DNA of 32,357 nucleotides from Bdellovibrionales bacterium RIFOXYD12_FULL_39_22 (lineage in GTDB: Bacteria > Bdellovibrionota > Bacteriovoracia > Bacteriovoracales > Bacteriovoracaceae): the NCBI GenBank assembly GCA_001770205.1, contig MEQL01000044.1, forward strand, positions 62,001 to 94,357, in the 5' to 3' direction. The notes under the pieces were generated by a model that ran no database searches, had not been told where the DNA came from, and worked only from the letters and a program-made list of their open reading frames with translations. Numbering within the stretch: position 1 is the stretch's first letter; the number at the start of each line of letters is the position of its first letter. This document shows positions 5,094 to 32,357 of the stretch, piece after piece. The translations under genes and the position numbers were made by a program.

Positions 5094-5143
5094 GTAATGC
5101 CATCTACTTCTTGCCGTGAGTCAACAATGACAAAGGAGAATTT

Positions 5144-5788: not shown

Positions 5789-5836
5789 CAAATTACCTAT
5801 TTTATATATACAAAGAAATAGGTGTGGAGAGTTACT

Positions 5837-6763: not shown

Positions 6764-6780
6764 ACAAAAGGAGAAGTTCG

Positions 6781-7401
6781 ATGAAAAAGGGATTAGCGTT
6801 ATTAGTGTTGGTGAGTTTTTTGCTGGGGCTACAAGGATGCGGGAGTAATTTCAAGGCCCAACGAGTGTCAGCCGATGAGTCAGATGAAAAGGCCTTAGAG
6901 ATTACCGATAAATGGATTCAGCGTGATACTGAAAATGCTATTAAAGATGTATTACAAAAATTTTCCGCCCATAAGGGGCTACAGCGCTATTTAGGAAAAT
7001 TGGGACGGCAACCTAAGCTTTTTATTAGCAGCGTGCAAAATGAGACTTCCGAAGCATATTTCCCAATTGATGATATGAACGATAAATTATTAGATGAGTT
7101 TTCTAGCTCTGGGGATTACATTTTAATTGATGCTGCGGCCCGCGATAAAATTTTGGCAGAGATTACTTATCAAAATGATGGGATGGTTGATCCAGCGCAG
7201 GCCAAGATGATTGGTAAGCAATCTGGGGCGGATATTTTAATTTTTGGTGCAGTTCGTATGAAGCCAGAGGCAAGAGATGGAAAAACTCTCAAGCAGTACT
7301 CGGTAAATTTGCGTATGACCAATTTAGAGACGGCAGAAGAAGTTTGCCGTGTTAGGTTTGAGGCCAGCAAATATTCTGAGCAAAAAGGTTCTGGCTGGTA
7401 G
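6781..7401 (+). CDS. LpoB-like (penicillin-binding protein activator / CsgG-fold) lipoprotein
   Basis: Lipobox LQGC; VQNETSE-x-x-x-ID, EITYQNDGMVDPAQAKMIGKQSGAD and LRMTNLETAE motifs typical of the LpoB-like family; AAGGAG RBS. Confidence 0.82.
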   Translation: MKKGLALLVLVSFLLGLQGCGSNFKAQRVSADESDEKALEITDKWIQRDTENAIKDVLQKFSAHKGLQRYLGKLGRQPKLFISSVQNETSEAYFPIDDMNDKLLDEFSSSGDYILIDAAARDKILAEITYQNDGMVDPAQAKMIGKQSGADILIFGAVRMKPEARDGKTLKQYSVNLRMTNLETAEEVCRVRFEASKYSEQKGSGW

Positions 7402-7435
7402 AATTTAGATAATAGCATAGTTATTTTTATCTAAA

Positions 7436-7463
7436 GGCCAGCAGAAAGTGCTGGCCTTTTTTT
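7436..7463 (+). terminator. Rho-independent terminator-like hairpin between the LpoB-like and COG3014 genes
   Basis: GGCCAGCA (7436-7443), loop GAAAG, TGCTGGCC (7449-7456), then T7 (7457-7463). Confidence 0.75.
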
Positions 7464-7475
7464 ATTGGAGTTTAT

Positions 7476-9044
7476 GTGATTAACATATTGGTTAAATATA
7501 CTGCTGGCCTAATGTTTGCCTCGTTTTTTCTCGGACTTTTTGGTTGTGCTAGTACCTCGCAAAAAACCGTTTTAGAAGTTAAGTCGTTGGTTCGTGAACG
7601 ACAATTTGAAAAGGCACTTGCCATTATTGAAAGCGATAATTTTTATCCAGAAGAGAGATCTAAATTGCTAAAACTTCTAGAGGATGGCACTGTTCGCTAT
7701 TTTGCGGGCCACTACTATCAGGCCTCTAAATTGTTTTATGAGGCACAGGAGTTGAGTAACAAATTATATACGGTTAGTATCAGCAAAAAAGCGCTAACCG
7801 GTCTGGCCAATGATAGTGCGGATAACTATTATGGCGAACTCTATGAACGTTCATTGATTCGTTTCTACTTTTCACTTTCTAATTTTATGCTTTATCAAAC
7901 GGCAACATATGAGGCACATAGTGAAAAGATAGCAGGGCCAGATGGTAAGCTAATTGAAGGCAAACTTATTCCCGAAAAAAAATTAAGCGAGGGAGAACGC
8001 AGGGTTCATCTGTTTGCTGCTAAAGCGGCCATCGTAGAGTGGGATTCTCTTTTAGAAAACTACAAAAGCGAGCATGCCGGAAAATCGGCGTATAAAGTGG
8101 ATTTGACAGCAAAAATATATGGGGCCTTTATTCATGAGCAGTTTAATTCCAATACTGATAATCAGATAGCGTTGCAATTATACAAAGATGCCAAAGAGGT
8201 ATTATTCAAAAATTATAATACCTATGGAACCTTTAATAGTTCTGAGGAAGCATTTCGCGAAAATTTTTCTAAATTTCCCACCATGGAGCGTGCGGAAGTT
8301 GAGAAAAATTTTGTTCGACCGACTATTCACGCTAAGGATTTGTTAGACTTTATTGACGGAAGAATCGCCAGACTATCCTCTAAAGAGCAAAATGCGGAAG
8401 TGGCAGTGTTGATTCAAAATGATTCGCTTACCGATAAAAGTGAATCAGAAGTTAAGTTACCCATTGATTTAGGCGTCAATATGGGAGCAGATGCAAAAAG
8501 TTTCGGCCAATTTGTCTCTATGGTTTTTTCTTCAGGCCGAGGAGGCATTTTAGATATTGCTTTTAAATTACCAAATGTTGCAAAAAAAATAACGACCGAA
8601 AGGATGGAGTTAGTGGCCAAGGAGAAAAGTGGTAAAGAGTACAAGGTTGCTCTGGCCATTGTTAATCCACTGTCTGATTTGGCCTACGAGGCCTTCAAAA
8701 ATAGTATTGGGGCCATTACCGCCAAAACTACTGCTAGAATTGCCGCCAAATATGTCGCTGCCTTAATGATTGCCTATAATACTTACAAGCATGATCAAGC
8801 GGCCGGATTAGGGGCGGGTATTTTGGCCAGGATGTCGATTAATGCTTCGGAAGGGGCCGATTTGCGTTATTGGTCAACGCTGCCGCATGATTTGCGTTTT
8901 GCAATAATGGATCTTCCGCCTGGGGAGTATGAATTTTTTGTAAATCATATCTCCAATCAAAATAAGATTTCTACAACCTTGTTGGGGAAACAGAGTATAA
9001 ATGAGCGCAAGAGTGATCTTTTTATTCCAGCAAAAGTTAATTGA
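7476..9044 (+). CDS. COG3014-family helical-repeat lipoprotein
   Basis: Lipobox LFGC; NYYGELYE motif; C-terminal ADLRYWSTLP...LPPGEY signature; usual neighbour of LpoB-like/LPP20 genes. Confidence 0.8.
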   Translation: MINILVKYTAGLMFASFFLGLFGCASTSQKTVLEVKSLVRERQFEKALAIIESDNFYPEERSKLLKLLEDGTVRYFAGHYYQASKLFYEAQELSNKLYTVSISKKALTGLANDSADNYYGELYERSLIRFYFSLSNFMLYQTATYEAHSEKIAGPDGKLIEGKLIPEKKLSEGERRVHLFAAKAAIVEWDSLLENYKSEHAGKSAYKVDLTAKIYGAFIHEQFNSNTDNQIALQLYKDAKEVLFKNYNTYGTFNSSEEAFRENFSKFPTMERAEVEKNFVRPTIHAKDLLDFIDGRIARLSSKEQNAEVAVLIQNDSLTDKSESEVKLPIDLGVNMGADAKSFGQFVSMVFSSGRGGILDIAFKLPNVAKKITTERMELVAKEKSGKEYKVALAIVNPLSDLAYEAFKNSIGAITAKTTARIAAKYVAALMIAYNTYKHDQAAGLGAGILARMSINASEGADLRYWSTLPHDLRFAIMDLPPGEYEFFVNHISNQNKISTTLLGKQSINERKSDLFIPAKVN

Positions 9045-9068: not shown

Positions 9069-10283
9069 TTAAAAGGCAAATCCAATTTTTAGTTCTGCGC
9101 CGCCTGATAAGATAGTTGTTTTGGCATCTTCCACTCGTCCAGAGTCGGGATCAAAACCAAGTCCATAGGCGGCCATCTCGCCAGAGAGATATCCGGCCAG
9201 CAGTAATCCGCTTTGATAACGATAGACTCCGCCCAAGTATCCACTGGCCGCATAAATGGCCGTGGGTTTATAGGTAGCGCTGCCGGCCATGGTGTATCGA
9301 TAGAGTGCTAAAAAATCAAAGTAGAATGGATTTTGGTAGTTAATATGGGCGTGTATGCCAGCGTCAGCGTTGGTAATGGATAAATCATCGACCACCACAG
9401 TGATAAGATTTTTTGGATACATTATAGGAATAGTAGACATATCTGCCCCTAAAACGAGCGAGAAGTCAAAAAGTTGGCCAAAAAGATGAGTGTTAGAGAA
9501 TGCTTCGGGAGAGATGGTGATAAGTCCCAAGATATTGGAAATGGTATAGCTCTTTTCTCCGATTAGTGTCTGCGTTTCTTCTAGTGCAGGATAGGTTCCT
9601 CCCACTTGAAAATAAGCAAACTCTAATCCTATTAGGCGAGTAATAGGGAGGTGCGCATTTACGGCGATATCTGGAATTCCCACATTATTATATCCAATAT
9701 CTGCACCACCTAAGGTGGAGGAAAAAGTTAAGAGTGCTACGTTGATTCCTCCACCCAAGAGGAGCTCATATTTTTTTGCTCCGGACTGTTTTGTGTTTTG
9801 ATCTGGTGTGCTGGGGGCCGCAATTGGTTGTGAACGGGATGTAGGTAAAGGCCCGTCAGCAAGGGTGTGGGATATTTTGATACTATTGTCTGTGGATACC
9901 GCCACTTGAATTTTATAGGTGGAAGTAACTTTATCTTTTTGAAGGCGCAGCATGAATAGATAGTTGCCGGGATTTAGATAAGCATAAATCTTAAACTCGC
10001 CGTTGCTATCACTAATTTGTCTGTTTTCTTTTTTTACAAAAAATTGAGCAGGGCCCAAAGCTTGCTTGCCTGTGCCAGAAGAAAAAATTACTTTGCTTCC
10101 TTGGGTGAGTTGCGCTCCGGGGGTTGTTTTTCCGACTAATCTGGCAATGAATTTTCCCTTAGACATGACCCCTTTAGGTCCGGACCATTGCAAGGGGAGA
10201 GATTGTTGCCCATACGCGCACATCTGAAAAAAAAGCACAACTGCTAGTAGAAAAAAAATATGCGTGCGAATGAAATATCGCAA
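9069..10283 (-). CDS. Putative outer-membrane protein: N-terminal beta-sandwich, P/S/T linker, C-terminal beta-barrel
   Basis: Signal peptide ending AYG; alternating amphipathic strands; C-terminus ELKIGFAF (terminal Phe, BAM-type signal); collinear with 19078..20286. Confidence 0.65.
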   Translation of the reverse strand: MRYFIRTHIFFLLAVVLFFQMCAYGQQSLPLQWSGPKGVMSKGKFIARLVGKTTPGAQLTQGSKVIFSSGTGKQALGPAQFFVKKENRQISDSNGEFKIYAYLNPGNYLFMLRLQKDKVTSTYKIQVAVSTDNSIKISHTLADGPLPTSRSQPIAAPSTPDQNTKQSGAKKYELLLGGGINVALLTFSSTLGGADIGYNNVGIPDIAVNAHLPITRLIGLEFAYFQVGGTYPALEETQTLIGEKSYTISNILGLITISPEAFSNTHLFGQLFDFSLVLGADMSTIPIMYPKNLITVVVDDLSITNADAGIHAHINYQNPFYFDFLALYRYTMAGSATYKPTAIYAASGYLGGVYRYQSGLLLAGYLSGEMAAYGLGFDPDSGRVEDAKTTILSGGAELKIGFAF

Positions 10284-10296
10284 TTAATCACCGATC

Positions 10297-10878
10297 CTAT
10301 TGATGACAGTCGTTGCATTTTACTGGTGCTGCCTCATTGCCGGATGCTTTGTGGCAAGTGATACAAATGCGATGCGCCTCGGTGCGCAAAGAGATTACAT
10401 CATCAAAGCGCTTTTGGAAAAGTTGCTCATTGCTTCCTGTCGGATTGGTGCTAAGTGAATTGTTGTGACAACTCGTGCACACGCCATTAGAAAGGTATGA
10501 AGTGGCCGCAATATGCATTTCGTGGTTAAAGTGCACTTCACCTTTGGTGTTATTGAAAACAAAATACTCCGGGTAATCGGCCTGAGAACCAGGGAATGAT
10601 TTGTTTTTTATTTCATCAATATTTTTCTTCCCATCGTTGTCAGAGTCTAATTGCTCCAGTGATTTTAGATTGATTTCACCATTAACCTTTTTATCGCGCA
10701 TCATCAGTCCGTAGGTATTTAAAAAATCTTTAACTACCGGCATATGGCAAGTGGTACAAGAATTAAGTTTTGTGTTTTTTAGAAAAGGGTATTCTGCGAT
10801 CATATAGGTATTTAAACTAGGAGTCGCAAACAAAATAGAAGTAGTAAGTAGGCCAGTGACTAAAATAATATTTTTCAT
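10297..10878 (-). CDS. Exported tetraheme cytochrome c (monoheme/DSDxDG domain plus c7/PpcA-like triheme domain), copy 2
   Basis: Four CxxCH: CTTCH, CTSCH, CITCH, CNDCH; FNHEMH and AH distal-His motifs; signal peptide ending LFA. AAGGAG spacing and the paralog favour ATG 10878 over 10887. Confidence 0.88.
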   Translation of the reverse strand: MKNIILVTGLLTTSILFATPSLNTYMIAEYPFLKNTKLNSCTTCHMPVVKDFLNTYGLMMRDKKVNGEINLKSLEQLDSDNDGKKNIDEIKNKSFPGSQADYPEYFVFNNTKGEVHFNHEMHIAATSYLSNGVCTSCHNNSLSTNPTGSNEQLFQKRFDDVISLRTEAHRICITCHKASGNEAAPVKCNDCHQ

Positions 10879-10905
10879 AGGGATCATTCTCCTTTTGCTA
10901 TGTAA

Positions 10906-11463
10906 TTATTGGTGACAGCCGCCACATTGTACTGGAGCGTTGGCACTTCCTGATTCTCGATGACATCTCCAGCAAAGACGGTGGCCTTCGGAGCGTAAAG
11001 AAATATTGTCATCAAAGCGTTTTAAAAATAGATCAGTTGCTTTATTGTTAGGAGCATCGTGGCAGTTATCGCAATTTCCACTTGACAGATAAGAGGGGGC
11101 GGCAACATGCATTTCGTGATTGAAATCAATATTTCCCTTCTTGTTGGTAAAGATGAAATATTCAGGATAGGTTGCATGAGAGCCGGGGAAGGCCTTATCA
11201 TTAAGCTCATCAATATTCTTTTTGGTATCTAGGTCTGAGTCAGCATCTTCAACGGCCTTAAAATCCATTTTGCTGGCGCGCAAAGAGAGTCCGTAGGAGT
11301 TAAGAGAATCTTTTACAACCGGCATATGGCAGGTGGTACAGGCATGCAGTTTACTATTTCGCAGAAAGGGATACTCGGCGATAAAAAGGGTTGTTAAGCT
11401 GGGGGTAGCAAATAATAAGGTGATGGTAAAAAGCTGAGAGAGTAAAATGATTATATATTTCAT
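10906..11463 (-). CDS. Exported tetraheme cytochrome c (monoheme/DSDxD domain plus c7/PpcA-like triheme domain), copy 1
   Basis: Four CxxCH: CTTCH, CDNCH, CWRCH, CGGCH; FNHEMH and GH motifs; AAGGAGG RBS; signal peptide ending LFA. Confidence 0.88.
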   Translation of the reverse strand: MKYIIILLSQLFTITLLFATPSLTTLFIAEYPFLRNSKLHACTTCHMPVVKDSLNSYGLSLRASKMDFKAVEDADSDLDTKKNIDELNDKAFPGSHATYPEYFIFTNKKGNIDFNHEMHVAAPSYLSSGNCDNCHDAPNNKATDLFLKRFDDNISLRSEGHRLCWRCHRESGSANAPVQCGGCHQ

Positions 11464-16565: not shown

Positions 16566-17744
16566 ATGGAACTATTGGCCCCGGGGGGAAGTTTAGAAAA
16601 ACTAAAGACAGCTGTTTTGTATGGTGCAAATGCTGTTTATGTTGGTGGTGAACGCTTTGGCCTCCGAGCGGCCGCCGATAATTTTTCAGAGATTGAACTA
16701 AAAGATGGAGTGGATTTTGCGCATAAGCATGGTGCCTTAGTTTATTTAACTCTTAATAGTTTTTTATATGGAGAAGAGATTCAGCAATTGCGAGATTATT
16801 TACCAACCTTAGAAAACATAGGCGTTGATGGAGCAATTGTCTCGGATATTGGAGTATTTGAGGTGGTGGCCTCCTTATCTTCTCTGCCCATTCATGTATC
16901 AACCCAGGCCTCTACTATAAATTTGCCACATGTTGAATTTTGGAAGCGTCAGGGTGCTCGGCGAGTGATTTTGGGGAGAGAGGTTTCCATGGCCGCCGCA
17001 ATTGAGATGAGAAAAGAGGCCAAGATTGAGATTGAGCTTTTTATTCACGGTTCCATGTGCATTGCTTATTCCGGAAATTGTATTATCTCCAATTTTACTT
17101 CTGGCCGTGATAGTAATCGCGGCGGTTGTGCACACAGTTGTCGTTTTTTATATGAGCTATCTTTTCCAGAAAATGGAAAAAAAGAGAAAAGTTATTTTAT
17201 GAGTTCCAAAGATTTATGGGGGATTGCGCAGGTCAAGGCGGCCATAGAAGGAGGAATTGATTCTTTAAAAATTGAGGGGCGGATGAAGAGCAATCTCTAT
17301 GTGGCCTCTACAACCAAACTTTATTCCCAATTAGTTAAGGACATTTTGTCCGGTAAGCTTGAGGGCGATGATATCCTGATAAAATATCAAAACGAGTTTT
17401 TGAAAATTCCCAATCGTCATTATTGCGATGGAAATCTTTCACAATATGCTGGAATGGATTCAATTTATAACGATCGCGAAAATGAAATTAAAGAGTACGA
17501 TTTTGTAGGTGTAGTGCTAGAAGCAGATCAGAGCGATTTTATGTTAGTCGAAGTTAGGAGAACTTTTTACGAGGGAGATATGCTTGAGCTTATAACGTTT
17601 GAAGGGGAAGATATTACGTTTAAGGCCCTCCATATTCTAGATGTTCGTGGCAATCGACAGCTAAAAAGTCGGCCAGGGACACTTATAAAAATGCAAAAAA
17701 TTTCACAGGCGGCCAAGTGGAATTTGTTACGGGCAAAAATTTAA
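16566..17744 (+). CDS. Peptidase U32 family Fe-S protein (TrhP/YrrO-like tRNA hydroxylation protein)
   Basis: MELLAPGG, GANAVYVGG, IHVSTQA, HGSMC-x6-C-x15-C-x3-C cluster motif, MSSKDL, SLKIEGRMKS, plus U32 C-terminal domain. Confidence 0.92.
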   Translation: MELLAPGGSLEKLKTAVLYGANAVYVGGERFGLRAAADNFSEIELKDGVDFAHKHGALVYLTLNSFLYGEEIQQLRDYLPTLENIGVDGAIVSDIGVFEVVASLSSLPIHVSTQASTINLPHVEFWKRQGARRVILGREVSMAAAIEMRKEAKIEIELFIHGSMCIAYSGNCIISNFTSGRDSNRGGCAHSCRFLYELSFPENGKKEKSYFMSSKDLWGIAQVKAAIEGGIDSLKIEGRMKSNLYVASTTKLYSQLVKDILSGKLEGDDILIKYQNEFLKIPNRHYCDGNLSQYAGMDSIYNDRENEIKEYDFVGVVLEADQSDFMLVEVRRTFYEGDMLELITFEGEDITFKALHILDVRGNRQLKSRPGTLIKMQKISQAAKWNLLRAKI

Positions 17745-17826
17745 GCATAAAAAGATCCCTATTGTTTTTGCCCAGATCTTAATATACCATGCAAAAATAA
17801 ACTGCTTTAATAATGGAGCAAAAAAA

Positions 17827-19008
17827 ATGAGTGAATTTATTTTTTATGCTCTATCTGTGATGGATATTGAAAAAAACTTATCGCAAACAGGCCATCACTC
17901 TCTGACAATTATCCTTCCACATGCACAACTAACTCCTCATTTGGCACTAGAAAATGATCAATTTGAGAAATTGGCCATCTTTGCTTGGGCACGCGGCCTT
18001 CGGGTTGCTGTTGATTTAGATTTAATACCCGATGATGATCAATTAGAAAAAATTATGCGAGTGGTGGCAGAAATTTTAACAAAGTGGCCAAAGACAATTT
18101 TTCGCGTAAAAAATTATGGATTGGCATCTTTATTAGTCTCTTACTATCCCAACATTTTGCTGCATTTGAATGTTGAGTTTGGCCATCACAACAAAGAATC
18201 CTTGTTAAAATTGGCACACATTTTTGAAAAAAATTTGCAAAGATTTATTTTATCAATAGAGTTGCCGCAAAATGATATCGCCGCCATAGTAGCTGCTTTG
18301 CCCTCTTCTTTGGAGATCGAGATCTTACTTCATGGGCCAATTTTTTTATTTTACTCTCCTCGTAAACTTTTGGGCCGGGATGAAAAAAACGAGGCCCGAT
18401 GGCCTTCGTCCCATCTTTTTGCCTTGGCAGATAGTGAGGAGAATGCGCATAAAAATTTTCGTGTTTATCAAAATAGTCATGGAACTATTTTATATCATCA
18501 CAAATATTTGTCGTTGTTAGAGGAATGGGAAAAATTAGCGCAATTGGGAGTAACCCACTTCCGATTGGATTGGAGAGAGATTAAAGACAGAAGCGCTTTA
18601 TATGATAGTTGGCAAAAAAAAGAATATCTGCAGGTGGCCACGCATACTCCCTTTAAAACCATACGCGGTTTTCATCAAAACAATAAGAGTGATTCTATTT
18701 TTGTAAAATTAAAAAATCAAAATCTTCGGCGACAAGGCCCGCAAGAGAATGGACGCACTTATCTCGGAACAGTTATGGATGTTCAGCGGGGTGGCCATCT
18801 GGCCATTTTAAATTTAAATAGCACTAACCAACTATGTGTAGGAGAACAAATTGTTATAACTACTCCAGAAGGAAAAGAGATTACAGTTAAAGTCGCTTCA
18901 CTTTTTAATTCCCGTTGGCAATCAATAGAGCGTTTAGCATATGAGGAAATTGGTTTCATCAATTATGTCAAAGGAGTGACTACCAAGTCCAAAGTTGAGA
19001 AGGTATAG
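17827..19008 (+). CDS. Peptidase U32 family paralog lacking cluster cysteines (YrrN-like)
   Basis: ILSIEL, EILLHGPIFLFYSPRKLL, NSHGTILY, GVTHFRLD; adjacent to the canonical U32 gene. Confidence 0.78.
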   Translation: MSEFIFYALSVMDIEKNLSQTGHHSLTIILPHAQLTPHLALENDQFEKLAIFAWARGLRVAVDLDLIPDDDQLEKIMRVVAEILTKWPKTIFRVKNYGLASLLVSYYPNILLHLNVEFGHHNKESLLKLAHIFEKNLQRFILSIELPQNDIAAIVAALPSSLEIEILLHGPIFLFYSPRKLLGRDEKNEARWPSSHLFALADSEENAHKNFRVYQNSHGTILYHHKYLSLLEEWEKLAQLGVTHFRLDWREIKDRSALYDSWQKKEYLQVATHTPFKTIRGFHQNNKSDSIFVKLKNQNLRRQGPQENGRTYLGTVMDVQRGGHLAILNLNSTNQLCVGEQIVITTPEGKEITVKVASLFNSRWQSIERLAYEEIGFINYVKGVTTKSKVEKV

Positions 19009-19077
19009 CGTATGGATAATGTTAGGCAGATTTTGCAACTAATTTGCTACCGAAGGATAGTGGGGTAGAATTTGGTT

Positions 19078-20286
19078 ATGAAAAATAGATTAATTTGTAG
19101 TTTGCTACTGTTTAGCTTACTGGCCGCGAGTCAAGTATATGCTTTTGCCGAAATTAGGTGGGAGAGTCCGGCAAAATTTAAAAAAAATGGTAATCTCTAT
19201 ACAATGGTGGCCATTGGCCAGACCAATGAATCAGTGGAAGTATCTGTTAGCGATAAAGTAAAAGTTGTCGCTAATGGACAAGCATCAAAAACTTCTTTTG
19301 TGGCACCAACGGAAGTGGTAAAAAATAGTTCTTACCCCATAAAAAGCACCAGCGCACACGCCTTTGCCCTAAAGTTTCTACTTAAAGATAATCATGCCTA
19401 TGTCTTAAAAGTTATTATTCAAAATAAAATGGGGAAGAGTAAGGAGTATGTGTTGCAGCTTAATGCAAAAAATGGGGCGGCCAACTACAAGGCCAAATTT
19501 TTACGTGATGGAGTAATTAGTAAAAAAAGTGGGCCGATGCCATCTAAAAATGTTGCACTCGATGATCCAAAACTAAAAACGACATACGTTGCAGGAGTAC
19601 ATGGAGGCCTTAATTTTCACAGTTATGGCATGCCGGTGACAGACATTGATTCGGAGGTCTATTATAGCTCCTTTGGTTTTCCGACCTATGGCGCCACTTT
19701 GGAGATTATGCCCAAATCGTTTTATTCTCACCGTTATGAGTTATTGCTGGCCCCGGGGAGTTTGGATGGCATTGAAGATGTCGAAATTAGTGGTTCTAAT
19801 CCCTATTCCTTGATGAAAATAGGAGGAGATTTTATTTGGCATCCAGAGTTTTTGCAAGATTTTCGACTGGCATTTGACCGTTTAGATTTAGTGTTATCGG
19901 TGGGTGTTGATTATTGGTCATTGCCTTTTATTACGCCTTATCTGCGCAAAACATTGTTATCTGAAAGTTTGGCATCTATTTTTATATCCACAGGGGTTGG
20001 TTTTTATTATTACATTGGAAAAGAGTATATTTTAGATGGTATGTTGCGCTACCTAATGCGAGTTTCTGGTGGGTTTGGTGTGGCCTCATCAAAAACCTTG
20101 GCCGGTGATGGAGATTTGGGCCTGCGCTATATCATTAATCCTACCTGGTCTTTAGGCCTTTATGGGACAATGGTTTTTTTACAAGAGAGTGTGGATTTTA
20201 ACTCCCAACTTGCTGCTGATCCGGTGAATGGTTCTCTTTTGTTTTATTCGACTACACTTTCTTTAAAATTACTGATGACTTTTTAA
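19078..20286 (+). CDS. Putative outer-membrane protein: N-terminal beta-sandwich plus C-terminal beta-barrel (paralog of 9069..10283)
   Basis: Signal peptide ending VYA or AFA; amphipathic strands; ends LKLLMTF. ATG 19078 preferred to TTG 19072. Confidence 0.65.
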   Translation: MKNRLICSLLLFSLLAASQVYAFAEIRWESPAKFKKNGNLYTMVAIGQTNESVEVSVSDKVKVVANGQASKTSFVAPTEVVKNSSYPIKSTSAHAFALKFLLKDNHAYVLKVIIQNKMGKSKEYVLQLNAKNGAANYKAKFLRDGVISKKSGPMPSKNVALDDPKLKTTYVAGVHGGLNFHSYGMPVTDIDSEVYYSSFGFPTYGATLEIMPKSFYSHRYELLLAPGSLDGIEDVEISGSNPYSLMKIGGDFIWHPEFLQDFRLAFDRLDLVLSVGVDYWSLPFITPYLRKTLLSESLASIFISTGVGFYYYIGKEYILDGMLRYLMRVSGGFGVASSKTLAGDGDLGLRYIINPTWSLGLYGTMVFLQESVDFNSQLAADPVNGSLLFYSTTLSLKLLMTF

Positions 20287-20307
20287 TCCAAAAAAAAGGA
20301 GAGAGGG

Positions 20308-21627
20308 ATGCGTTTTACACTTACCATCGCGACAATACTTTTTTTTATAGCAACTTCTTCGGGAAGGGCCGCACTGTCTACTTCTAATACTTTTTCCTCT
20401 AAATGGTCAGTTCTTGGAGGAGTGGGAGAGGTAAATGATGCGGATGCGCTCTATTTGAATCCGGCGAGACTAGGGGAAGGGGCCAAATCGGAAATGGCCG
20501 CACATTTTGCTGCTAAGTTCATAAACAGTAGTGGGCCGCTTATTACTAATAACAATTATGAGGGAGAGAGTGTGACTACCACTGATCTGGCGTTGTTGTG
20601 GAAAATGAAATTAGGCAATCGCTGGGGAATTGGCCTGGGACATTATCCGGTGGCCATTTGGGAGAGCTCTTATCCTCAAGTTGATATGAGTGTGGTGGAA
20701 ACTTCCATCTATCCATGGAAGGCCTATCAACCATCTTTACACTCTTATTTCGATATTGATGAACTTGCATTGGGTGCGAGCTATCGTTATTCGGGAAACA
20801 TTTTGCTGGGAGTAGCTTTTCGTGCAACTATAGCGGAAGCAGATTATTCTTACCTTGAATATGATCAACCGACTGATCCCAATAATATGGTGGCCGTGAG
20901 TTTAAAAGAGATGAGCGGTAGTAATTGGGGGGGATTTTCTTTGGGTGCAAGCTATCGGCCGGATAGTATGCGTTGGGGCGCAGGAATGCTTATTCGCACT
21001 CCCATTCAATTAACATTACAAGGCCTATCTTCTGCAGTAGAACAAAGTGCGCTAGTGGAAACAAATGCACAATGGGAGTATGGGCCGCAAAATGCCACTA
21101 TGAAAATGGAGCTTCCACTTTCTATTTCGTTGGGAGGACAATACTACCTCGCAGGCGGACGCGAAATTATTTTTGGTACATATAATTTTATTAATTATGC
21201 CCAGGCCTCTAAATTTTCTTTGGAGGGAGAATCATTATTGGTGTTTGGTAGCACACGGGAAGTAATAAAAGGCCAGGAAGTGCTACTACATTGGAATGAT
21301 TTTCATCAAATAAAACTAGGGTATCAAATCGAAAAAGAAGGTTATGAGTTGATGGGCGGATACGCCATCACCTGGCCGGTGGCCACCGACGATGGAGGCA
21401 ATTCGCAGATGGCCGCCCCTGGATTTGAACATGCGCTCTCTGGTGGGGCAAGCTTTCCGTGGAGTAGTGGCGCTGGAAGTTTGGAGTTATCTACAGAGTA
21501 TAGTTGGATTGAGGGACAAAATAAGAAGACACCTTCGGCAGCAGAAAATTTTCAACGCACTATGCTTGAGGGCGATTTTTCTACGGAAGTAATTGCCTTT
21601 TATTTGGGAGCAAGATGGCGCTGGTAG
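20308..21627 (+). CDS. FadL/OmpP1/TodX-family outer-membrane transporter
   Basis: NDADALYLNPARL hatch motif; GIGL..YP, ELPLSISLGG and WND..QIKLG strand patterns; aromatic C-terminus; AAGGAG RBS. Confidence 0.8.
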   Translation: MRFTLTIATILFFIATSSGRAALSTSNTFSSKWSVLGGVGEVNDADALYLNPARLGEGAKSEMAAHFAAKFINSSGPLITNNNYEGESVTTTDLALLWKMKLGNRWGIGLGHYPVAIWESSYPQVDMSVVETSIYPWKAYQPSLHSYFDIDELALGASYRYSGNILLGVAFRATIAEADYSYLEYDQPTDPNNMVAVSLKEMSGSNWGGFSLGASYRPDSMRWGAGMLIRTPIQLTLQGLSSAVEQSALVETNAQWEYGPQNATMKMELPLSISLGGQYYLAGGREIIFGTYNFINYAQASKFSLEGESLLVFGSTREVIKGQEVLLHWNDFHQIKLGYQIEKEGYELMGGYAITWPVATDDGGNSQMAAPGFEHALSGGASFPWSSGAGSLELSTEYSWIEGQNKKTPSAAENFQRTMLEGDFSTEVIAFYLGARWRW

Positions 21628-24881: not shown

Positions 24882-26762
24882 TTATGTGAACTTTGTCACA
24901 ATAAGAGTGATATCATCATCGAGCGGATGGGCCGCAAAAAAATCTTTGGCATCGCCGACCACATTATCGCGGAATTTATCACTTTCGAGGTTAATATTAT
25001 TTATAATAGATTTTAAAAAATTTCTATTTCCCCAAGGTTTTTCTTCCTTGTTGGTACACTCAACTATTCCATCAGTAAAAAAAACAATACTTTCGCCAGA
25101 GCAAAAAGATATCGTGCAGTCGTTGTAAGAGGCATCTTTTCTCTCTCCTAAACGAGGGCCGTTGGAATCCATCAAGGGATGGAGATTTTGTTTGGAAATT
25201 TCTTCGCCGGATTGGCCAGGAATAAAATGCAGTGGGTGATTATGAGAAGCGTTGGCATAGATAAGTTCATTTTTTTTGGTATCTATGACGGCAATAAAAA
25301 AAGTCATCAATATTTGACTGCCAATATCGCATACTGCTTTATTCACGATGCGCATCATTTTTGCCGGAGAATTTAAAAGAGAAGGGTCTGATTGGGCCAT
25401 AATTTCTAAGTTTGAGGCAGAGCAATTGGCGGTAGCGGTGAGAAGAGCGGCCGGAACGCCATGGCCGGTGGCATCGGCAATCATTAAAACCGTTTTTCCA
25501 TTAATTTGTAAGTGTCCCCACCAATCTCCTCCACATTCAGTGGCCGGTTCATAGAAGGCGGCAATTTCTAGTTTGCCAAATTTAAGATTATTTGCGGGAA
25601 AAAAAGATTCTTGTACCAGTTTTGCCACTTTAAGTTCATTCTCTAAGCGGATTTTTTCTCCCATCTGGCCCATATAACGAACAATTTCATCGGCCATGTA
25701 GTTGAAAGAATCAGAAAGGGCACCAATCTCATCATGGGAGTGAAGTTCAACGCGGTTTTTAAAATCACTTTGCGCTAGCGTTGATGTCGCGGAAAATAGT
25801 TTCTCAATGGAAGAGGTGATAGTGCGCGAAAAGATTATTCCGATGATGATGGCAATGGAGATAAGGAAAATTCCAAAGTAGAGCGATTTATTCATAAGGG
25901 TGGTAGCGGCCAAAAATGCCCGATCCTTGGAAATTTCGGCAAAGACAAAAAGATCTTCTCCGCTAATTTGATTATGAGCAACTAAAAAAGTTGTTCCGTT
26001 TTCATCCACATAATTGCTAACACCATCTTTTCTATCCACAGAATCAACCAGTGAATTGTAAAAAAGTGCCTTGGCCTGTGGAATTTCTGCCGAGAGATTC
26101 TTTTTTAAAAAAAGACGGCCACTTTTGTCAATTATTAATATCTCGTAAATTTTATTATTAGCTATAAGATCGGCCAAATCATCCATTTTTACGCGAGCTA
26201 CGTAGATCTCGTTTTTTTCTGCGTCAAAGGTGGCCAAAACTAAATGGGGAAATTGAGACGCTGGGTTGTATCCTTCAACATAACGTCGTTTTTTTTCAAT
26301 CATTAAAAATGGAATGGGATTTATTTGGGAATACTTGATAAAGTAATCAACGGGTAGTCCTTGGCCGCTAAGCGAAATTTCATCACTGACAGCAAAAATA
26401 AGTTTAAATTCACCGTCTACCTCGGTTCGCTTATAGATGGAAAATTCGATAAAATTTTTATTGGCCTCAAAAATTGATTTGGCCATTTTTTCTTGTTCAG
26501 GGGTATTGGCGTAGATGCGTCCTAAATAATCAGTAATTTGCAGCGCGTGATCTAAAAAAGAAGCGACCTGTTTGGCGATGGCCTCCGAAGTGTTAAGCCC
26601 TGTTTCATAGATGTAGGCAGATTTATCTTCGCGAAAAAGTTTAAGTGCGAAATAGGCGTAGTAAGATAGAGACGAAGCGACCAGAAGTATAACTACCGCA
26701 ATAAGTTTTAACTTAATAGGAATGCGAACTTTTCTTATTTTAGCAATAGTATTATTTTCCAT
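24882..26762 (-). CDS. Membrane sensor PP2C/SpoIIE (RsbU-like) Ser/Thr phosphatase with periplasmic Cache-like domain and HAMP
   Basis: Two TM segments; HAMP DEIGALSDSFNYM; CGGDWW, IADATGHGVPAAL, FTDGIVE, DDDITL. Confidence 0.93.
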   Translation of the reverse strand: MENNTIAKIRKVRIPIKLKLIAVVILLVASSLSYYAYFALKLFREDKSAYIYETGLNTSEAIAKQVASFLDHALQITDYLGRIYANTPEQEKMAKSIFEANKNFIEFSIYKRTEVDGEFKLIFAVSDEISLSGQGLPVDYFIKYSQINPIPFLMIEKKRRYVEGYNPASQFPHLVLATFDAEKNEIYVARVKMDDLADLIANNKIYEILIIDKSGRLFLKKNLSAEIPQAKALFYNSLVDSVDRKDGVSNYVDENGTTFLVAHNQISGEDLFVFAEISKDRAFLAATTLMNKSLYFGIFLISIAIIIGIIFSRTITSSIEKLFSATSTLAQSDFKNRVELHSHDEIGALSDSFNYMADEIVRYMGQMGEKIRLENELKVAKLVQESFFPANNLKFGKLEIAAFYEPATECGGDWWGHLQINGKTVLMIADATGHGVPAALLTATANCSASNLEIMAQSDPSLLNSPAKMMRIVNKAVCDIGSQILMTFFIAVIDTKKNELIYANASHNHPLHFIPGQSGEEISKQNLHPLMDSNGPRLGERKDASYNDCTISFCSGESIVFFTDGIVECTNKEEKPWGNRNFLKSIINNINLESDKFRDNVVGDAKDFFAAHPLDDDITLIVTKFT

Positions 26763-26856: not shown

Positions 26857-29800
26857 ATGATTCGACGTTTCTTTGATTATTTTTTGATTGCTTTCTTTTC
26901 AGTGGTGGCCTATCTGAGCGGGGAGCAAGTTTTTGGAACAGCTCGCAGCGATATGGTTGCCGAGTCAGCAGATATTGTAGGGAAAATTTTAAAAGTTTCC
27001 CATGTAGTTAAGTTAAAGGCGGAAGGATTTTTGGCATGGAATGATGCAAAAGAAGAGCAATCACTGGTATTAAATGATCAGGTATATGTTCATGACTTTT
27101 CCGCTACAACGCTGGCATTTTCAAGTGGGGAAGAGGTTCGTTTGGCCTCGAATACTCTTTTGAAAATTGATGGGACGAAAGATCTCCCTGAAATTAATCT
27201 CAAAAGTGGATTAGTCTACTTTAAAATTTTAGATGAAAAAAAATCGAAATTAAGCTTGCAAATGGGAGGGAAGAAGATAACTTTCAAAAAAAAACGAGGA
27301 ACAAGTGCAGAGCTTGAGATTTTTAAACAGGAAGAGTCTCTAAAAATAGTAGTTCATCAGGGAGAGGTCCAAATGGCCTCTCAAATAGCAACAGACGATA
27401 AAGTAGAAAACTTAGATATCAGCGAGTCGCAGTTTATAGAATTAAATGGCCAAGAAAGTATACCTATTGAGGCCGTTAAAGTAAGAGAAGCAACTTTGTT
27501 TTTACAAAAACCCAATGATGGAGAAAAAATTGTCTCTTATGAAAATAGTGGGCAGGTGGAATTTTTTTGGAAGCAGTTGGCATCAGGTAAGGCCACCAAA
27601 ATTCAAGTCGCTAAAGATCGAAAATTTGAAAACATACTTTTTGAGGAGAGAGTGGAATTGGGCGTAACGTCGCTGTTTTTTAACTACGATTCCCCGGGTA
27701 GCTTCTATTGGCGCGCGCTTACTGTGATAGATGATGGTTCCGAGGAGGAAGAAGAGATGACTCCCCCGCATAGTTTTTCAATAGTCAAAAACAGTCCTCC
27801 TGAATTTTACTATCCGGAGGAAGGGAGTACCATCTTTTTGGATGAGGATGGCCGAGTATTAAACAAGACTCAAGCAATATTGGAGTGGCAATCCAAACAG
27901 GACGCAGATTACTTTTTGGAGTTGTATAAGGGAGAAGATAATGTAGTTGGACAACGGCAAAAAACTAATCGCTACAAATTGTCTAGCTTTTCCGAGGGCG
28001 CCTATCGTTTTCGAGTGAAGTATAAAAATCTTGATATGCCAGATTCTCCTTGGACGTCATTTCGCAATTTTTTTATCGAAAGAGTGCAACTCCCGCGCAT
28101 AAATACCTTGGCCGCCCCTTCGGATGGAGAAGAGTTTATAACAAATCCACAAGGGATCGATCTTCGCTGGGAAGCAGATAAAAATGCCGTCGGTTACTTA
28201 ATTATGCTTGCAACCGACATGGAGTTTGAAAATGTTGTGGTTAGAAAAACGGTCTATGATCATGAATTCAATTTTATGCCAGAAAAATTTTCTACCTATT
28301 TCTGGAAGGTAATGCCCATTGATCGCTTGCAACGAAAAACCACTTTCTCTCCAATTTTTAGTTTTTCCTTGGCCAATTATGCGGTAGAACCCCATTTTCC
28401 CACGGCCCAAGACGAATTGGTATTAAAGAGCGTAGATGATAAGATATCTTTTTTAGTCTCCGGAACAATGCATCCACAGGTTCAATACTACTTACAAATT
28501 GGGGTAAGTGAAAATTTCGAAGGCCATTTTTTTGAGGCCCCTCTGTCGACCTCTGCTTACAAATGGGAAGAGAGCGAAGAAGGACAGTTTTTTTGGCGCA
28601 TAAAGATGGCCGACCCATACGGAATAATTAGCTATTCTCAAGCTATTCCTATTAAAATTGAACAGGCCCCAGAGTTAAAAAAACCGGTGATTGATTTGCA
28701 AAATATAGAGCAGCAAATGGATATTAAGCGGGTTCAACCGAAAAAGCGAAAAAATAAAAATTCCACTTTTTTACATCGCTTTTTTAATTTTATTATAAGT
28801 AGTGCATATGCGGAGAGCGTGGAGAGTGAAGAGTATGTCGACATTGTAAGTATAAGATGGCCCAAACAGAAATTAGCAGTTAAGTATTGCCTGGAAATTT
28901 ATCGTGATGAAAAGGGGCAACGTCAGCTTTTATCCACTATTGTCAGTGGAGTGCAATATGACTGGAAAGATCCACAGCAAGGAAGAGTTTTTTGGCGTAT
29001 TGCGGTGATTGACAAATGGGGAAGGCAGAGTCCTTTTAGTGATCTTATTGCCTTAGATGTTGTATTGCCGGAGAGCCTAAAACCCTTTGATCCACCTCGC
29101 TTGATTTGGCCTTTGTATGATCAGGCCATTGATTTGAAAGATTCTATGGCCACCTTTTCTTGGCAGGGGGCCCACGGAAGCATTAAGTATCAGTTTGTTA
29201 TTGCACATGATGATCAATTCAAGGTTCCTATTTTTAAAACGGAACTTACTGGCCAATCAGTGGCCGTAGATCTTTCACAGATTGTGCAAAGGAAGGCCCT
29301 TTTTTGGCAGGTGGTTGCCTGGAATAATCTAGGTAAAAAGTCAACAACGATTAGACAGAAGGTGATAATCAATCCTCCCAAAAGAAGAAAAAAAATTACG
29401 CATCCTGGATTGCATAAAAATTTAGCGATGATGTTAACACCTAGTTTTGTTAAATATAAATCCAGCAATGAAGAGTTAAATATTGAAATCAATTTTGATG
29501 GAATTGTTTATACCTCTTTTGCCTTGGCCGGCCAATGGGAGCGTTCTAATGGAGATTTTTTTGCCATGCAATCATCTCGCACTTCGGGAGAAGTTTTTGG
29601 AGAAGTGGCCTATCAAGATAACGAATTATACTTATCCTACAACCGCTTTTATTCTTTAGGACTTTCCTTGCCAACATACATTGGCCTAGGAGTGGGGGGA
29701 GATTTCATTACTCAACTTGAGCGAAAAAATGGTGATTTTACTAATGATAATGAACTTTTTTATGAATTACTATTACTAGGCGGCATAGAGTGGGGAACAG

Positions 29801-30015
29801 CGCATAAGAGTCGCTGGATTCATGTCGCAGAATTAGGAATAGGTGGAGGATCAACTCTTCATCTTCAACTAAAATATCAATTGTCGTTTGAGTTATTTAA
29901 TACATATTTTCTTTTTGTAGACGCCGCTCTCACTAAGCGTTTTTTATATGGTAAAGAAGTGGTGATTGAGCTTGATCAGGATAAAATAGGAATTGGGATT
30001 AAAAAATTATTTTAA
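26857..30015 (+). CDS. Large envelope protein: N-terminal anchor, FecR domain, six FN3/Ig-like repeats, C-terminal beta-barrel
   Basis: N-terminal hydrophobic segment; FecR-like L-x-x-N-T-L-L-K-I and VHQGEV; six repeats of P-x-x-G...W...Y-x-L-x-I...(Y/F)WR; about 200-aa amphipathic-strand C-terminus ending IGIGIKKLF. Confidence 0.75.
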   Translation: MIRRFFDYFLIAFFSVVAYLSGEQVFGTARSDMVAESADIVGKILKVSHVVKLKAEGFLAWNDAKEEQSLVLNDQVYVHDFSATTLAFSSGEEVRLASNTLLKIDGTKDLPEINLKSGLVYFKILDEKKSKLSLQMGGKKITFKKKRGTSAELEIFKQEESLKIVVHQGEVQMASQIATDDKVENLDISESQFIELNGQESIPIEAVKVREATLFLQKPNDGEKIVSYENSGQVEFFWKQLASGKATKIQVAKDRKFENILFEERVELGVTSLFFNYDSPGSFYWRALTVIDDGSEEEEEMTPPHSFSIVKNSPPEFYYPEEGSTIFLDEDGRVLNKTQAILEWQSKQDADYFLELYKGEDNVVGQRQKTNRYKLSSFSEGAYRFRVKYKNLDMPDSPWTSFRNFFIERVQLPRINTLAAPSDGEEFITNPQGIDLRWEADKNAVGYLIMLATDMEFENVVVRKTVYDHEFNFMPEKFSTYFWKVMPIDRLQRKTTFSPIFSFSLANYAVEPHFPTAQDELVLKSVDDKISFLVSGTMHPQVQYYLQIGVSENFEGHFFEAPLSTSAYKWEESEEGQFFWRIKMADPYGIISYSQAIPIKIEQAPELKKPVIDLQNIEQQMDIKRVQPKKRKNKNSTFLHRFFNFIISSAYAESVESEEYVDIVSIRWPKQKLAVKYCLEIYRDEKGQRQLLSTIVSGVQYDWKDPQQGRVFWRIAVIDKWGRQSPFSDLIALDVVLPESLKPFDPPRLIWPLYDQAIDLKDSMATFSWQGAHGSIKYQFVIAHDDQFKVPIFKTELTGQSVAVDLSQIVQRKALFWQVVAWNNLGKKSTTIRQKVIINPPKRRKKITHPGLHKNLAMMLTPSFVKYKSSNEELNIEINFDGIVYTSFALAGQWERSNGDFFAMQSSRTSGEVFGEVAYQDNELYLSYNRFYSLGLSLPTYIGLGVGGDFITQLERKNGDFTNDNELFYELLLLGGIEWGTAHKSRWIHVAELGIGGGSTLHLQLKYQLSFELFNTYFLFVDAALTKRFLYGKEVVIELDQDKIGIGIKKLF

Positions 30016-30120
30016 GCTTGGTTTTTTTACAACTTCGATTTTGTCTCTGTATGATATAACACTTCTACTCCAAGCGATTTTAATTTTCTAATTTTGATGC
30101 GAGCACTAAATTATGCGAAG

Positions 30121-30164
30121 AAAAAAATGGGATAGCTCAGTCTGTCTTTCCGAGCGTTGCTCCC
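30121..30164 (-). terminator. Probable terminator of the 30199..30807 gene
   Basis: Minus strand: GGGA-GCAAC-GCTCGG-loop-CTGAGC-TA-TCCC-A-T7. Confidence 0.5.
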
Positions 30165-30968: not shown

Positions 30969-31153
30969 GTTGAGCTCAGCGATAGGATAAGTGTAAATTT
31001 TTACCGCACTGTCAATTTTTTTTCCACCAAATAAAATGGAGTTAAGAAGGCGCAAGGACGAGAACCATAACGGGATTGAGCATGGATATAGTTCCAACTC
31101 GGATCTAATTTGTCCGGCGATCTACTAAATGTAAAAGGAAGAAGGTGTTATTT

Positions 31154-31954
31154 ATGAACAATGAAAACAGCAAACAAAGTAATGAAGCAACCGCATTAAC
31201 GCTGATGGCCGACTTTCCTAAAATATATTGCCCGCTTGTGCGCAAGATATTTAAGATAGATCCAGTTATTTTTAAAAAACTAGGATCTCGCTATAAACTA
31301 AAGGCCCCCGAAGTCTATTTGGTTATTAACAAAGTCAATCCCGGATATGAGTGGGTTTTTGAAGATCCCGAAACCATTGCCGTAGAAAAACTAGATGGAA
31401 CTAATATAAAAATCAAAACAGAAAAAGGACGACTAGTGGCCGTCCAGAATCGAATGAATATCATCGATCCACTTAAGGTAGTAGGAGGGCCAGCACATAT
31501 CGTAGATGGTATTTTGCGCTCGGCCTCCAAAGATTTAATCAAACCAGATGGTGAACAGGTCGGAGAGTTGATAGGCCCTAAATTACAAGGCAATCCCTAC
31601 AAACTGGAGTCACATGAGTGGTATCCTTTTGAGAAGGCCATTACCGATTTGAGATATAAATCTTTTCATGAGCATGAACGGAATTTTGAAAATTGGAGTT
31701 CTTGGTTTAAAGATCATTTACACTCTCGTTATTTTACTAAACGTGCTTCTAAGTTGGGATTGACGGAGTCAGTTTTTGCGGAAGGAGTTATTTTTTATAA
31801 TCTCAAACGCAAAGCAGAGAATAAGTCTTGGCGGGCCAAACTTCGTCGCGATATGTTTGCTTGGTTTTATGAACCAGAGATTCCTGTGGCCGGATATGAT
31901 CCTAATGCTGAATATTCAGATGAGGATCTAAAGCTTCAGGATCTTAAAGACTAA
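31154..31954 (+). CDS. ATP-dependent RNA ligase-like nucleotidyltransferase (RLIG1/C12orf29, DUF5565-like)
   Basis: Motif I EKLDGTN; GELIGPKLQGNPY; motif IV EGVIF; motif V AKLRR; no OB domain. AAGGTG RBS favours ATG 31154. Confidence 0.8.
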   Translation: MNNENSKQSNEATALTLMADFPKIYCPLVRKIFKIDPVIFKKLGSRYKLKAPEVYLVINKVNPGYEWVFEDPETIAVEKLDGTNIKIKTEKGRLVAVQNRMNIIDPLKVVGGPAHIVDGILRSASKDLIKPDGEQVGELIGPKLQGNPYKLESHEWYPFEKAITDLRYKSFHEHERNFENWSSWFKDHLHSRYFTKRASKLGLTESVFAEGVIFYNLKRKAENKSWRAKLRRDMFAWFYEPEIPVAGYDPNAEYSDEDLKLQDLKD

Positions 31955-31985
31955 TCACTTGCATTCTTTAACTACAAGCAAATAG

Positions 31986-32357
31986 TCATAGGTGATCGGT
32001 ATTTACTCTAAACTCAAATAATCCGGCCTTAAAAAGTCCGTTCACCTCAACGATGCTTTTCTCTCTGGGAATACGAGTAGAGAATAAATTTTTTCCGACA
32101 ACTTGTTTCGACAGACCTCGAATTACTTTTGAAATTTTAATAACGGTATTGGATTTTACTCTGGATAAAAAATATCAACCACCGTTGTCAATTGCCTGAA
32201 AAAGCGCAAAGTCAAAATATCCGAGATCAAAAATTATAAGATATCCTGCGACTGTTTTTAAATCCGGAAAATGGTTGTGATCGTTGCTAGTTCCAGGACT
32301 TATATCAAACCATTTTACAACACCGCCAAAAATGTCAAAGCAGTGATGCCACTTTAT
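31986..32357 (-). pseudogene. Disrupted IS4-family (DDE_Tnp_1) transposase fragment; 5' part beyond the window end
   Basis: Manual translation: IKWHHCFD...FDISPGTSNDH...LIIFDLGYFDF...DNGG*YFLSRVKSN...FEFRVNTDHL*. In-frame TGA at 32175-32177; frame ends at 31986 with no Y-x2-R-x3-E (third catalytic residue) motif. Confidence 0.82.

Follow-up and report, generated by a model that had tools for sequence, protein, structure and literature searches.

A conserved A-x-A motif within a FecR-FN3-barrel protein of Bdellovibrionota as a proposed processing site in a putative trans-envelope signalling relay

The window, that is the whole stretch of 32,357 nucleotides analysed here (positions 62001-94357 of contig MEQL01000044.1 of the host, Bdellovibrionales bacterium RIFOXYD12_FULL_39_22), contains on its forward strand, at 26857-30015, an open reading frame (ORF) of 1052 amino acids. 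The encoded protein combines a FecR-like domain, FN3-like repeats and a C-terminal beta-barrel, and carries in mid-chain a short motif, an amphipathic helix followed by A-x-A. Computational analysis revealed the architecture of the protein, the fold of its barrel, the conservation of the motif, its exchange for a signal peptide in homologs and the pairing of the gene with a sensor gene. The feature is real and conserved, and it represents a new variant of trans-envelope signalling relays with what is probably an unusual processing signal. Regarding mechanism, we give somewhat better than even chances to a trans-envelope signalling polyprotein that signal peptidase I cleaves where a hydrophobic (h-) region is lacking, its halves then re-locking by strand complementation. 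More speculatively, and with chances that we place a little under even, Bdellovibrionota may possess a general cleavage signal, an amphipathic helix with A-[YH]-A that measures some 11 residues in all. Signal peptidase I would cut it from the membrane surface, without an h-region, anywhere in an exported chain, turning single genes into polyproteins; in the present protein the cut would fall inside an FN3 fold, and the barrel would travel free and then clip back by strand donation, so that one gene yields a signalling bridge between two membranes.

The ORF is present as earlier described. The gene is spanned whole and without a single difference by one contig in each of two DNA runs, which are possibly the window's own source, and an assembly artefact is ruled out by both contigs together with many full-length homologs. 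A sequence-only reading of the window had proposed an N-terminal anchor, a FecR-like domain, six FN3-like repeats and a barrel-like C-terminus ending in Phe, a layout that the ORF and AlphaFold2 models bear out. The full-length protein was modelled on alignment A2, which holds 103 rows, namely the window protein and 102 of 150 homolog hits, chosen as near-full-length with giant FN3 arrays and most proteins above 1100 amino acids excluded. The model reached a mean predicted local distance difference test score (pLDDT) of 86 and a predicted template modelling score (pTM) of 0.48, and contains six beta-sandwich repeats (residues 214-311, 317-409, 418-506, 511-603, 663-735 and 748-839). The Pfam FecR family matches the window protein at E 1.3e-4, with a score of 22.7 that lies below the cut-off of 24; the ortholog of Halobacteriovorax marinus scores 31.7, above the cut-off.

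Foldseek with the full-length model returned only long arrays of FN3 or immunoglobulin (Ig) domains at low template modelling scores, and the barrel was therefore folded alone. Structure prediction of the C-terminus, a check proposed with the sequence-only reading, gave a barrel: the last 205 residues fold into ten strands with pLDDT 95 and pTM 0.88. Among 48,161 chains the best structural matches are OmpT, OpcA and a Legionella porin (Z 19.2-19.6; the next row has Z 13.1), with OmpT and OpcA both at Z 19.6 and root-mean-square deviations of 3.2 over 197 residues and 2.4 over 181, respectively. The likeness to OmpT is one of fold only, at 9% identity. In keeping with an outer-membrane barrel, the domain is even-stranded and amphipathic and has an aromatic last residue (Phe). 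No consistent Pfam family was found for it, OMP_b-brl matching in 2 of 46 proteins at E 0.016. At the other end of the chain, a hydropathy of 2.53 over 12 residues marks the N-terminal helix as hydrophobic, and no A-x-A cut site follows it in 36 homolog N-termini inspected by eye, on which grounds we read it as an uncleaved anchor. With this anchor and the C-terminal barrel, the chain is predicted to be anchored in each of both membranes. Other searches were less informative: the window protein retrieved generic Ig/FN3 clusters and nothing more specific from the ESM Atlas, and only itself from a word-index homolog search, while promoter and terminator scans stayed at chance level. FecR-type proteins can cleave themselves at a Gly-Thr pair; such a pair at residues 145-146 is not conserved in alignment A1, and self-cleavage of this type was dropped.

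Homologs of the window protein occur in 27 of 61 related genomes, and the profile built from A1 matches 301 of 401 genomes of the phylum at E <= 1e-10, many over the FecR-FN3 part alone. The sequence-only reading had drawn attention to residues 621-652 (28717-28812) and proposed a homolog alignment, in which the motif is indeed present. Counted from a cut after A652, position -1 among the 103 rows of A2 is Ala in 94 (Ser 4, Gly 3, Thr 1, gap 1) and position -3 is Ala in 76 (Val 8, Ser 8, Thr 3, Leu 3); position -6 is hydrophobic (Ile 51, Phe 25, Leu 13, Val 6). By these columns the motif is no product of chance. The homologs that keep the motif share about 20% identity overall, and A652 is among about 20 near-invariant columns of 1052. 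Within the protein set P0001-P0150, 119 proteins shorter than 1900 amino acids match FecR, 98 of these also match the barrel profile, and 83 of the 98 have the motif here; since the same set served to train the scoring matrix, this last count is partly circular, a problem from which the A2 columns are free. The ortholog of a cultured species, Halobacteriovorax marinus SJ (CBW27625.1), also carries the motif. No description of the family or the motif was found in the open literature, the part of the record that was covered (subscription journals were not), and the available portions of PMC4593670 and PMC9360617 offer no evidence on the short motif.

The conserved core consists of a hydrophobic-faced helix, then A-[YH]-A, often with acidic residues after it. 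The helix has a hydrophobic moment of 0.60 in the window protein (mean 0.43 in 89 homologs), a charged residue lies at -12 to -4 in 71 of the 89, and the residue at -2 is Tyr or His in 63 of 92, a narrower choice than in the ordinary signal peptides of the host genome. The signal-peptide layout claimed earlier thus survives in part: the A-x-A and the amphipathic helix are kept, while the basic stretch is particular to the window protein, net charge at -24 to -13 being zero or negative in 28 of 92 homologs. Compared with a canonical Sec/signal peptidase I signal peptide, the motif has the A-x-A and lacks the N-terminal position, the basic n-region and the h-region; it is too polar to span a membrane.

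A second line of evidence comes from split homologs. These had escaped the sequence-only reading, as had three further points: that the cut would lie within an FN3 fold, that a sensor gene stands divergently next to the gene, and that YajC and other proteins have the motif too. At nine loci (L015, L016, L023, L083, L084, L087, L088, L091 and L097) the FecR-FN3 protein ends where the motif would be; the gene downstream encodes first a hydrophobic signal peptide and then the same FN3. Seven of the nine downstream genes end in a barrel-like C-terminus, and the other two (L016, L023) run off the locus edge. The start hydropathy of the downstream frames is 1.75-3.45, taken over the first 45 open-frame positions and thus including some residues ahead of the start codon. 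In L015, L016, L083 and L091 the stop of the first gene overlaps the start of the second; L088 has an additional gene between both halves, where a 266-residue ORF (L088:3145-3942) shows an HNH-like end by eye. A second type of split, after repeat 5, is seen in L011, L076, L078 and a paralog of the host (G000:C12:11840-16078). At this host locus (L103, G000:C12:6006-16078) a 1413-residue FecR-FN3 protein with neither motif nor barrel is followed by a barrel-like gene with a signal peptide and by two sensor-like genes. The motif is absent from the upstream proteins of all these two-gene loci and from the barrel-less forms seen.

Where the split falls was clarified by the repeats themselves. They open with a P-x-L-x-x-P segment and a short strand, ahead of a strand ending in Trp. 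In repeat 5 this segment precedes the motif, and the upstream proteins of two-gene loci end with it. The motif, which had been placed between repeats 4 and 5, therefore lies by homology inside repeat 5, in the loop following its first strand segment; in L060/P0062 the opening segment is joined directly to the rest of the repeat with zero insertion. When the two L015 halves were modelled as a complex, they scored 0.69 against 0.20 for the best control; the pass mark is reached by 116 of 157 complexes of solved structure and, among mismatched pairs, by 2 of 215. The runs agree in at least 96% of contacts, with a partner pLDDT of at least 89. The interface is formed by upstream tail residues 98-114, with the closest contacts from 101-104 and 109 to FN3 residues 54-58 and 66-76, and the tail is modelled as taking the place of the repeat's missing first strand.

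A quick-method tree of the first 300 residues groups the two-gene L015 with five fused proteins that carry the motif, at 97 in the Shimodaira-Hasegawa-like approximate likelihood ratio test (SH-aLRT) and on a long branch, which suggests fission and regain of an ordinary signal peptide. Fused forms with the motif need 7 changes on this tree, at least 3 of which are forced by well-supported branches. Three of its labels are wrong or unsafe: L008, entered as a two-gene form, has the look of a fused gene with a frameshift, and L027 and L089, both entered as barrel-less, run up to the edge of their loci.

The same short motif also occurs in other proteins. A scan of 3464 host ORFs gave 31 with a score of at least 11, against 12-15 in shuffles, and 12 of them lie within 45 residues of the N-terminus. 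YajC appears to be a second case in which the short motif and an ordinary signal peptide replace each other: the N-terminus of host YajC (L134, G000:C12:51365-51715) is the bare 11-residue motif with nothing before it, and in 30 YajC proteins of the phylum (including L137-L165) the N-termini range from a motif of 7-11 residues to full signal peptides, 11 of the 30 scoring at least 8 for the motif and many others starting with ordinary signal peptides. YajC of E. coli presumably begins similarly. The YajC chain in the PDB covers a 37-residue fragment, which is silent on processing. The top internal hits of the scan are a small exported protein and three paralogs of a secreted family that has no Pfam match (L099-L101; C42:65729-67432, C48:25094-27349 and C61:104803-107958 of the host). 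The paralogs have Gly/Ala-rich hydrophobic segments, a common C-terminal I-F-x-I-I-x-x-R-Y and one or two internal copies of the motif, and by sequence they are candidates for polyprotein processing. The family is unrelated to the FecR-barrel protein, and 7 of its 29 loci, many of them incomplete, contain an internal motif, against 0.05 expected from shuffles. For the C61 protein, no homologs were found by word index and the ESM Atlas gave no usable hit.

The start codon of the FecR-barrel gene lies 94 bp from that of a divergently oriented membrane sensor gene, and a related divergent HAMP sensor gene is found beside 81 of 87 homologous FecR genes, in a search whose query included HAMP and among loci that are kin. 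All 19 partner sensors scanned have HAMP, with outputs of PP2C type in 12, cyclase in 5 and kinase type in 2; dCache_1 matches weakly, below cut-off, in 5 of the 19. CHASE2 had no match in 20 partner sensors, nor did a sigma factor among 29 window proteins scanned. Because the input region of the partners is constant while their outputs vary, we regard the pair as a signalling module, in which the gene pairing suggests contact between relay and sensor.

Based on the above, the gene would encode the relay of a trans-envelope module and would be the polyprotein version of a two-gene unit. From the outer membrane inwards this relay would consist of the barrel, the FN3 rod, the FecR-like domain and the anchor in the inner membrane, and the divergent HAMP sensor would be its partner. 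The chain would be exported via Sec on its N-terminal anchor. An amphipathic helix lying on the periplasmic face of the inner membrane would then present the A-x-A to signal peptidase I, for which the host genome has two genes, with no need for a membrane-spanning h-region, and a cut after A652 would release a 400-residue FN3-barrel half for ordinary outer-membrane delivery. Since the cut would fall within FN3 repeat 5, the anchored half would retain the first strand of that repeat and, as modelled for the split homolog, could re-insert it into the barrel half to give a 1:1 bridge. Donor-strand complementation is well known from pili, where an Ig-like fold is completed by a strand from another chain. 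Internally processed polyproteins from which a type I signal peptidase yields two products are also known, in Bradyrhizobium FbcH and thylakoid PsbY, and their internal signals are membrane-spanning hydrophobic segments, unlike the motif described here. To our knowledge, no case joins strand complementation and internal processing in a bridge between two membranes. Of the three explanations offered by the sequence-only reading (internal cutting, an internal start at M621 and a fusion scar), internal cutting is the best supported, and we infer cleavage at the motif from the comparison of homologs.

A number of observations weigh against this mechanism. The motif has no h-region, its best 12-residue hydropathy being 0.94 (median 1.08 in 89 homologs) compared with 2.69 in 128 heuristic signal peptides of the host genome, themselves picked for hydrophobicity. 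It lies 625 residues away from the sole membrane helix, while in 3 of 6 sites elsewhere (YajC and two others) a membrane helix follows within 45 residues of the motif; the window protein has none there. Moreover, 15 of the 98 FecR-barrel proteins are without the motif, an R-x-P/I-A/S-S word taking its place in 5 and the other 10 scoring as neither; by eye, about four of the ten show a degenerate A-x-A. Cutting at the motif is thus not obligatory for the family, as the fused and motif-less L060, L081, L085, L022 and L026 indicate. The complex test tends to favour halves of a split domain through their likeness to solved FN3 folds, the alignment rows behind the L015 model come mostly from fused proteins, and residues 604-637 are free of strands in the full-length model of the window protein, in which the motif appears as a low-confidence helix (638-646) within a disordered loop. 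For YajC, no paper showing cleavage of the N-terminus was found. Finally, RsiV of Bacillus subtilis, in which signal peptidase performs site-1 cleavage at a site tied to amphipathic helices (PMC6066255; PMC8844934, as far as their accessible parts go), is a precedent for the proposed site. RsiV resembles the present protein as a membrane protein with an internal site for signal peptidase I and associated amphipathic helices, but according to the same parts its helices shield the site until lysozyme binds and do not present it. RsiV is furthermore an anti-sigma factor, while the site discussed here is located 625 residues past the sole membrane helix and apparently replaces a signal peptide.

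One alternative, which we consider unlikely, is that the chain stays whole across both membranes and that the motif is an uncut amphipathic helix binding a membrane leaflet, a chaperone or the sensor. The marked amphipathicity of the helix (moment 0.60) and the existence of fused homologs without the motif, L060/P0062 even with no insertion at all, would fit such a role. It also has a parallel in the Dma proteins, which are anti-sigma factors whose single chain spans both membranes by means of a disordered tether and a barrel of 8 strands (PMC10927553, accessible part); Dma1 does so at full length, which makes a cut unnecessary in principle. As in Dma proteins, an inner-membrane helix and an outer-membrane barrel are here predicted in one polypeptide, trans-envelope signalling is proposed, and the question arises how a tethered barrel gets assembled. 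The present protein differs from them in that it lacks a cytoplasmic anti-sigma domain, its anchor helix beginning right at the N-terminus, and that no sigma factor gene lies next to it, and in having a folded FecR-FN3 rod, ten barrel strands, an internal signal-peptidase-like site and natural split forms. An uncut chain leaves unexplained why the A-x-A is the best-conserved part of the motif, why split forms have an ordinary signal peptide in its stead, and why YajC alternates between both forms.

It is also conceivable, albeit distinctly improbable, that the loop is cut by another periplasmic protease, or only on a signal as in an RsiV-like switch, so that the cut would be a step in signalling and not in biogenesis. 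RsiV provides a precedent for regulated cutting in the available part of its description (PMC6066255), and the preference for Tyr or His at -2 (63 of 92) is narrower than in ordinary signal peptides. Seven homologs (P0045, P0048, P0054, P0081, P0108, P0109 and P0132) have the R-x-P/I-A/S-S word in the motif loop; the R-x-[PI]-A-S word occurs 62 times in the host proteome versus 26-29 in shuffles, an enrichment of about twofold, often in exported proteins, and is possibly a second processing signal. As a protease site, however, the R-x-P-A-S word is a guess, and the two-gene forms, which are permanently split, have the same sensor neighbour, so that separation alone is unlikely to be the signal.

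A further alternative, to which we assign very little probability, is a functionless scar left by the signal peptide when two genes fused. The motif does stand exactly where two-gene forms carry their signal peptide. Nevertheless, a scar fits poorly with the near-invariance of A652 and with a hydrophobic face retained at about 20% identity, with the occurrence of the same motif in unrelated proteins, and with the 7 changes, at least 3 of them forced, that the tree requires for fused forms with the motif.

An internal translation start at or near M621, yielding a separate exported FN3-barrel half, is hardly credible. M621 is present in the window protein with basic residues after it, and YajC shows that a bare motif is possible at an N-terminus. 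Yet M621 occupies a hydrophobic position of the first strand segment of repeat 5, in a column that is Ile in 52, Leu in 27, Val in 11, Phe in 4 and Met in only 3 of 103 rows, and just 20 of 92 homologs have a Met within -35 to -9. Neither start codons nor Shine-Dalgarno words are enriched: in-frame start codons at -35 to -9 occur in 23 of 51 fused loci versus 48% of random windows of the same genes, and Shine-Dalgarno-like words in 2 of 51 versus 6%. AGAGGA stands upstream of M1 and none before M621. Equally implausible is a cytoplasmic FecR-FN3 half with the motif as an internal export signal for the C-terminal half only; the motif is similar to the last part of a signal peptide, but its hydrophobicity is too weak for membrane crossing, basic residues precede the N-terminal helix, and the modelled strand exchange with an exported FN3 requires both halves to be periplasmic.

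Apart from Dma and RsiV, other systems resemble the proposed relay by role. In Sinorhizobium meliloti the outer-membrane protein NsrA signals to inner-membrane sensors, the CHASE2 cyclases (PMC13001267), and a cluster of Campylobacterota combines a CHASE2 cyclase with a FecR-containing outer-membrane protein (PMC9239204), both as described in the accessible parts of these reports. There, as proposed here, an outside signal passes via a barrel or a FecR-containing protein to an enzyme-linked sensor, and 5 of the 19 partners in our set are cyclases; the likeness is one of role. In contrast, the present sensors are Cache-like with HAMP, mostly of PP2C output and without CHASE2, and the relay has both an inner-membrane anchor and an internal motif. 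The module also differs from FecI-FecR-FecA in that the neighbour is a HAMP-PP2C sensor and not an ECF (extracytoplasmic function) sigma factor with a TonB-dependent receptor. Residues 666-737 match positions 2-69 of the Leptospira LIC11435 profile (NF047756) at E 3.5e-5, a weak match whose score is 22.8 against a cut-off of 380 and which leaves the rest unmatched. The matched part is the N-terminal end of the LIC11435 family, which is consistent with a two-gene form in another phylum. LIC11435 is listed as a predicted outer-membrane protein (PMC5348505) and LIC11436 as a fibronectin binder (PMC11350617).

Table 1. Positions in the window of the FecR-FN3-barrel gene, its parts and its divergent partner
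Feature	Positions	Strand	Basis
Whole gene: anchor, FecR-like domain, six FN3 repeats (motif within repeat 5), 10-stranded beta-barrel	26857..30015	+	ORF and structure models
N-terminal inner-membrane anchor helix, residues 2-27	26860..26937	+	AlphaFold2 model and hydropathy
FecR-like periplasmic beta domain, residues 40-211	26974..27489	+	AlphaFold2 model and Pfam
FN3-like repeats 1-4, residues 214-603	27496..28665	+	AlphaFold2 model and Foldseek
First strand segment (A/A') of FN3 repeat 5, residues about 607-623; proposed donor strand	28675..28725	+	Alignment, two-gene homologs, complex model
Conserved motif, residues 637-652: amphipathic helix and A-x-A; proposed signal peptidase I site after A652	28765..28812	+	Alignment
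Strands B-G of FN3 repeat 5, residues 663-735; equal to first domain of downstream gene in two-gene homologs	28843..29061	+	AlphaFold2 model and homologs
FN3-like repeat 6, residues 748-839	29098..29373	+	AlphaFold2 model
10-stranded outer-membrane beta-barrel ending in Phe, residues 854-1052	29416..30012	+	Barrel folded alone
Divergent partner: membrane sensor with periplasmic Cache-like region, HAMP and SpoIIE/PP2C phosphatase output	24882..26762	-	Domain scan

Elsewhere in the window, a second FecR-domain gene is followed by LPP20 and LpoB-like lipoprotein genes (4251-9044), and two tandem multiheme cytochrome c7-like genes lie with an unmatched ORF of 404 amino acids at 9069-11463. Two U32 peptidase-family genes precede two ORFs with no Pfam or NCBIfam match (16566-21627). 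Just past the FecR-barrel gene, a 37-base stretch (30090-30126) is repeated almost exactly within an ORF of contig C2 (at about 24,580). At 31145-32357 an RNA-ligase-like protein, with weak RNA_ligase and RLIG1 matches, adjoins a frame at the contig end that we take to resemble a transposase fragment.

For Dma proteins, the accessible part of PMC10927553 calls it an open question how a barrel tethered to the inner membrane gets to the outer one. The present family displays three natural solutions together, namely two separate genes, a single chain bearing a cut-like site and a single chain that lacks one, and their coexistence makes the question of barrel delivery testable. An experiment is within reach, given that the cultured Halobacteriovorax marinus SJ has an ortholog bearing the motif. 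If the motif is cut, signal peptidase I would accept internal sites that lack a hydrophobic core and would be missed by prediction tools based on N-terminal signal peptides, and predatory bacteria would have several further polyproteins among their large exported proteins.

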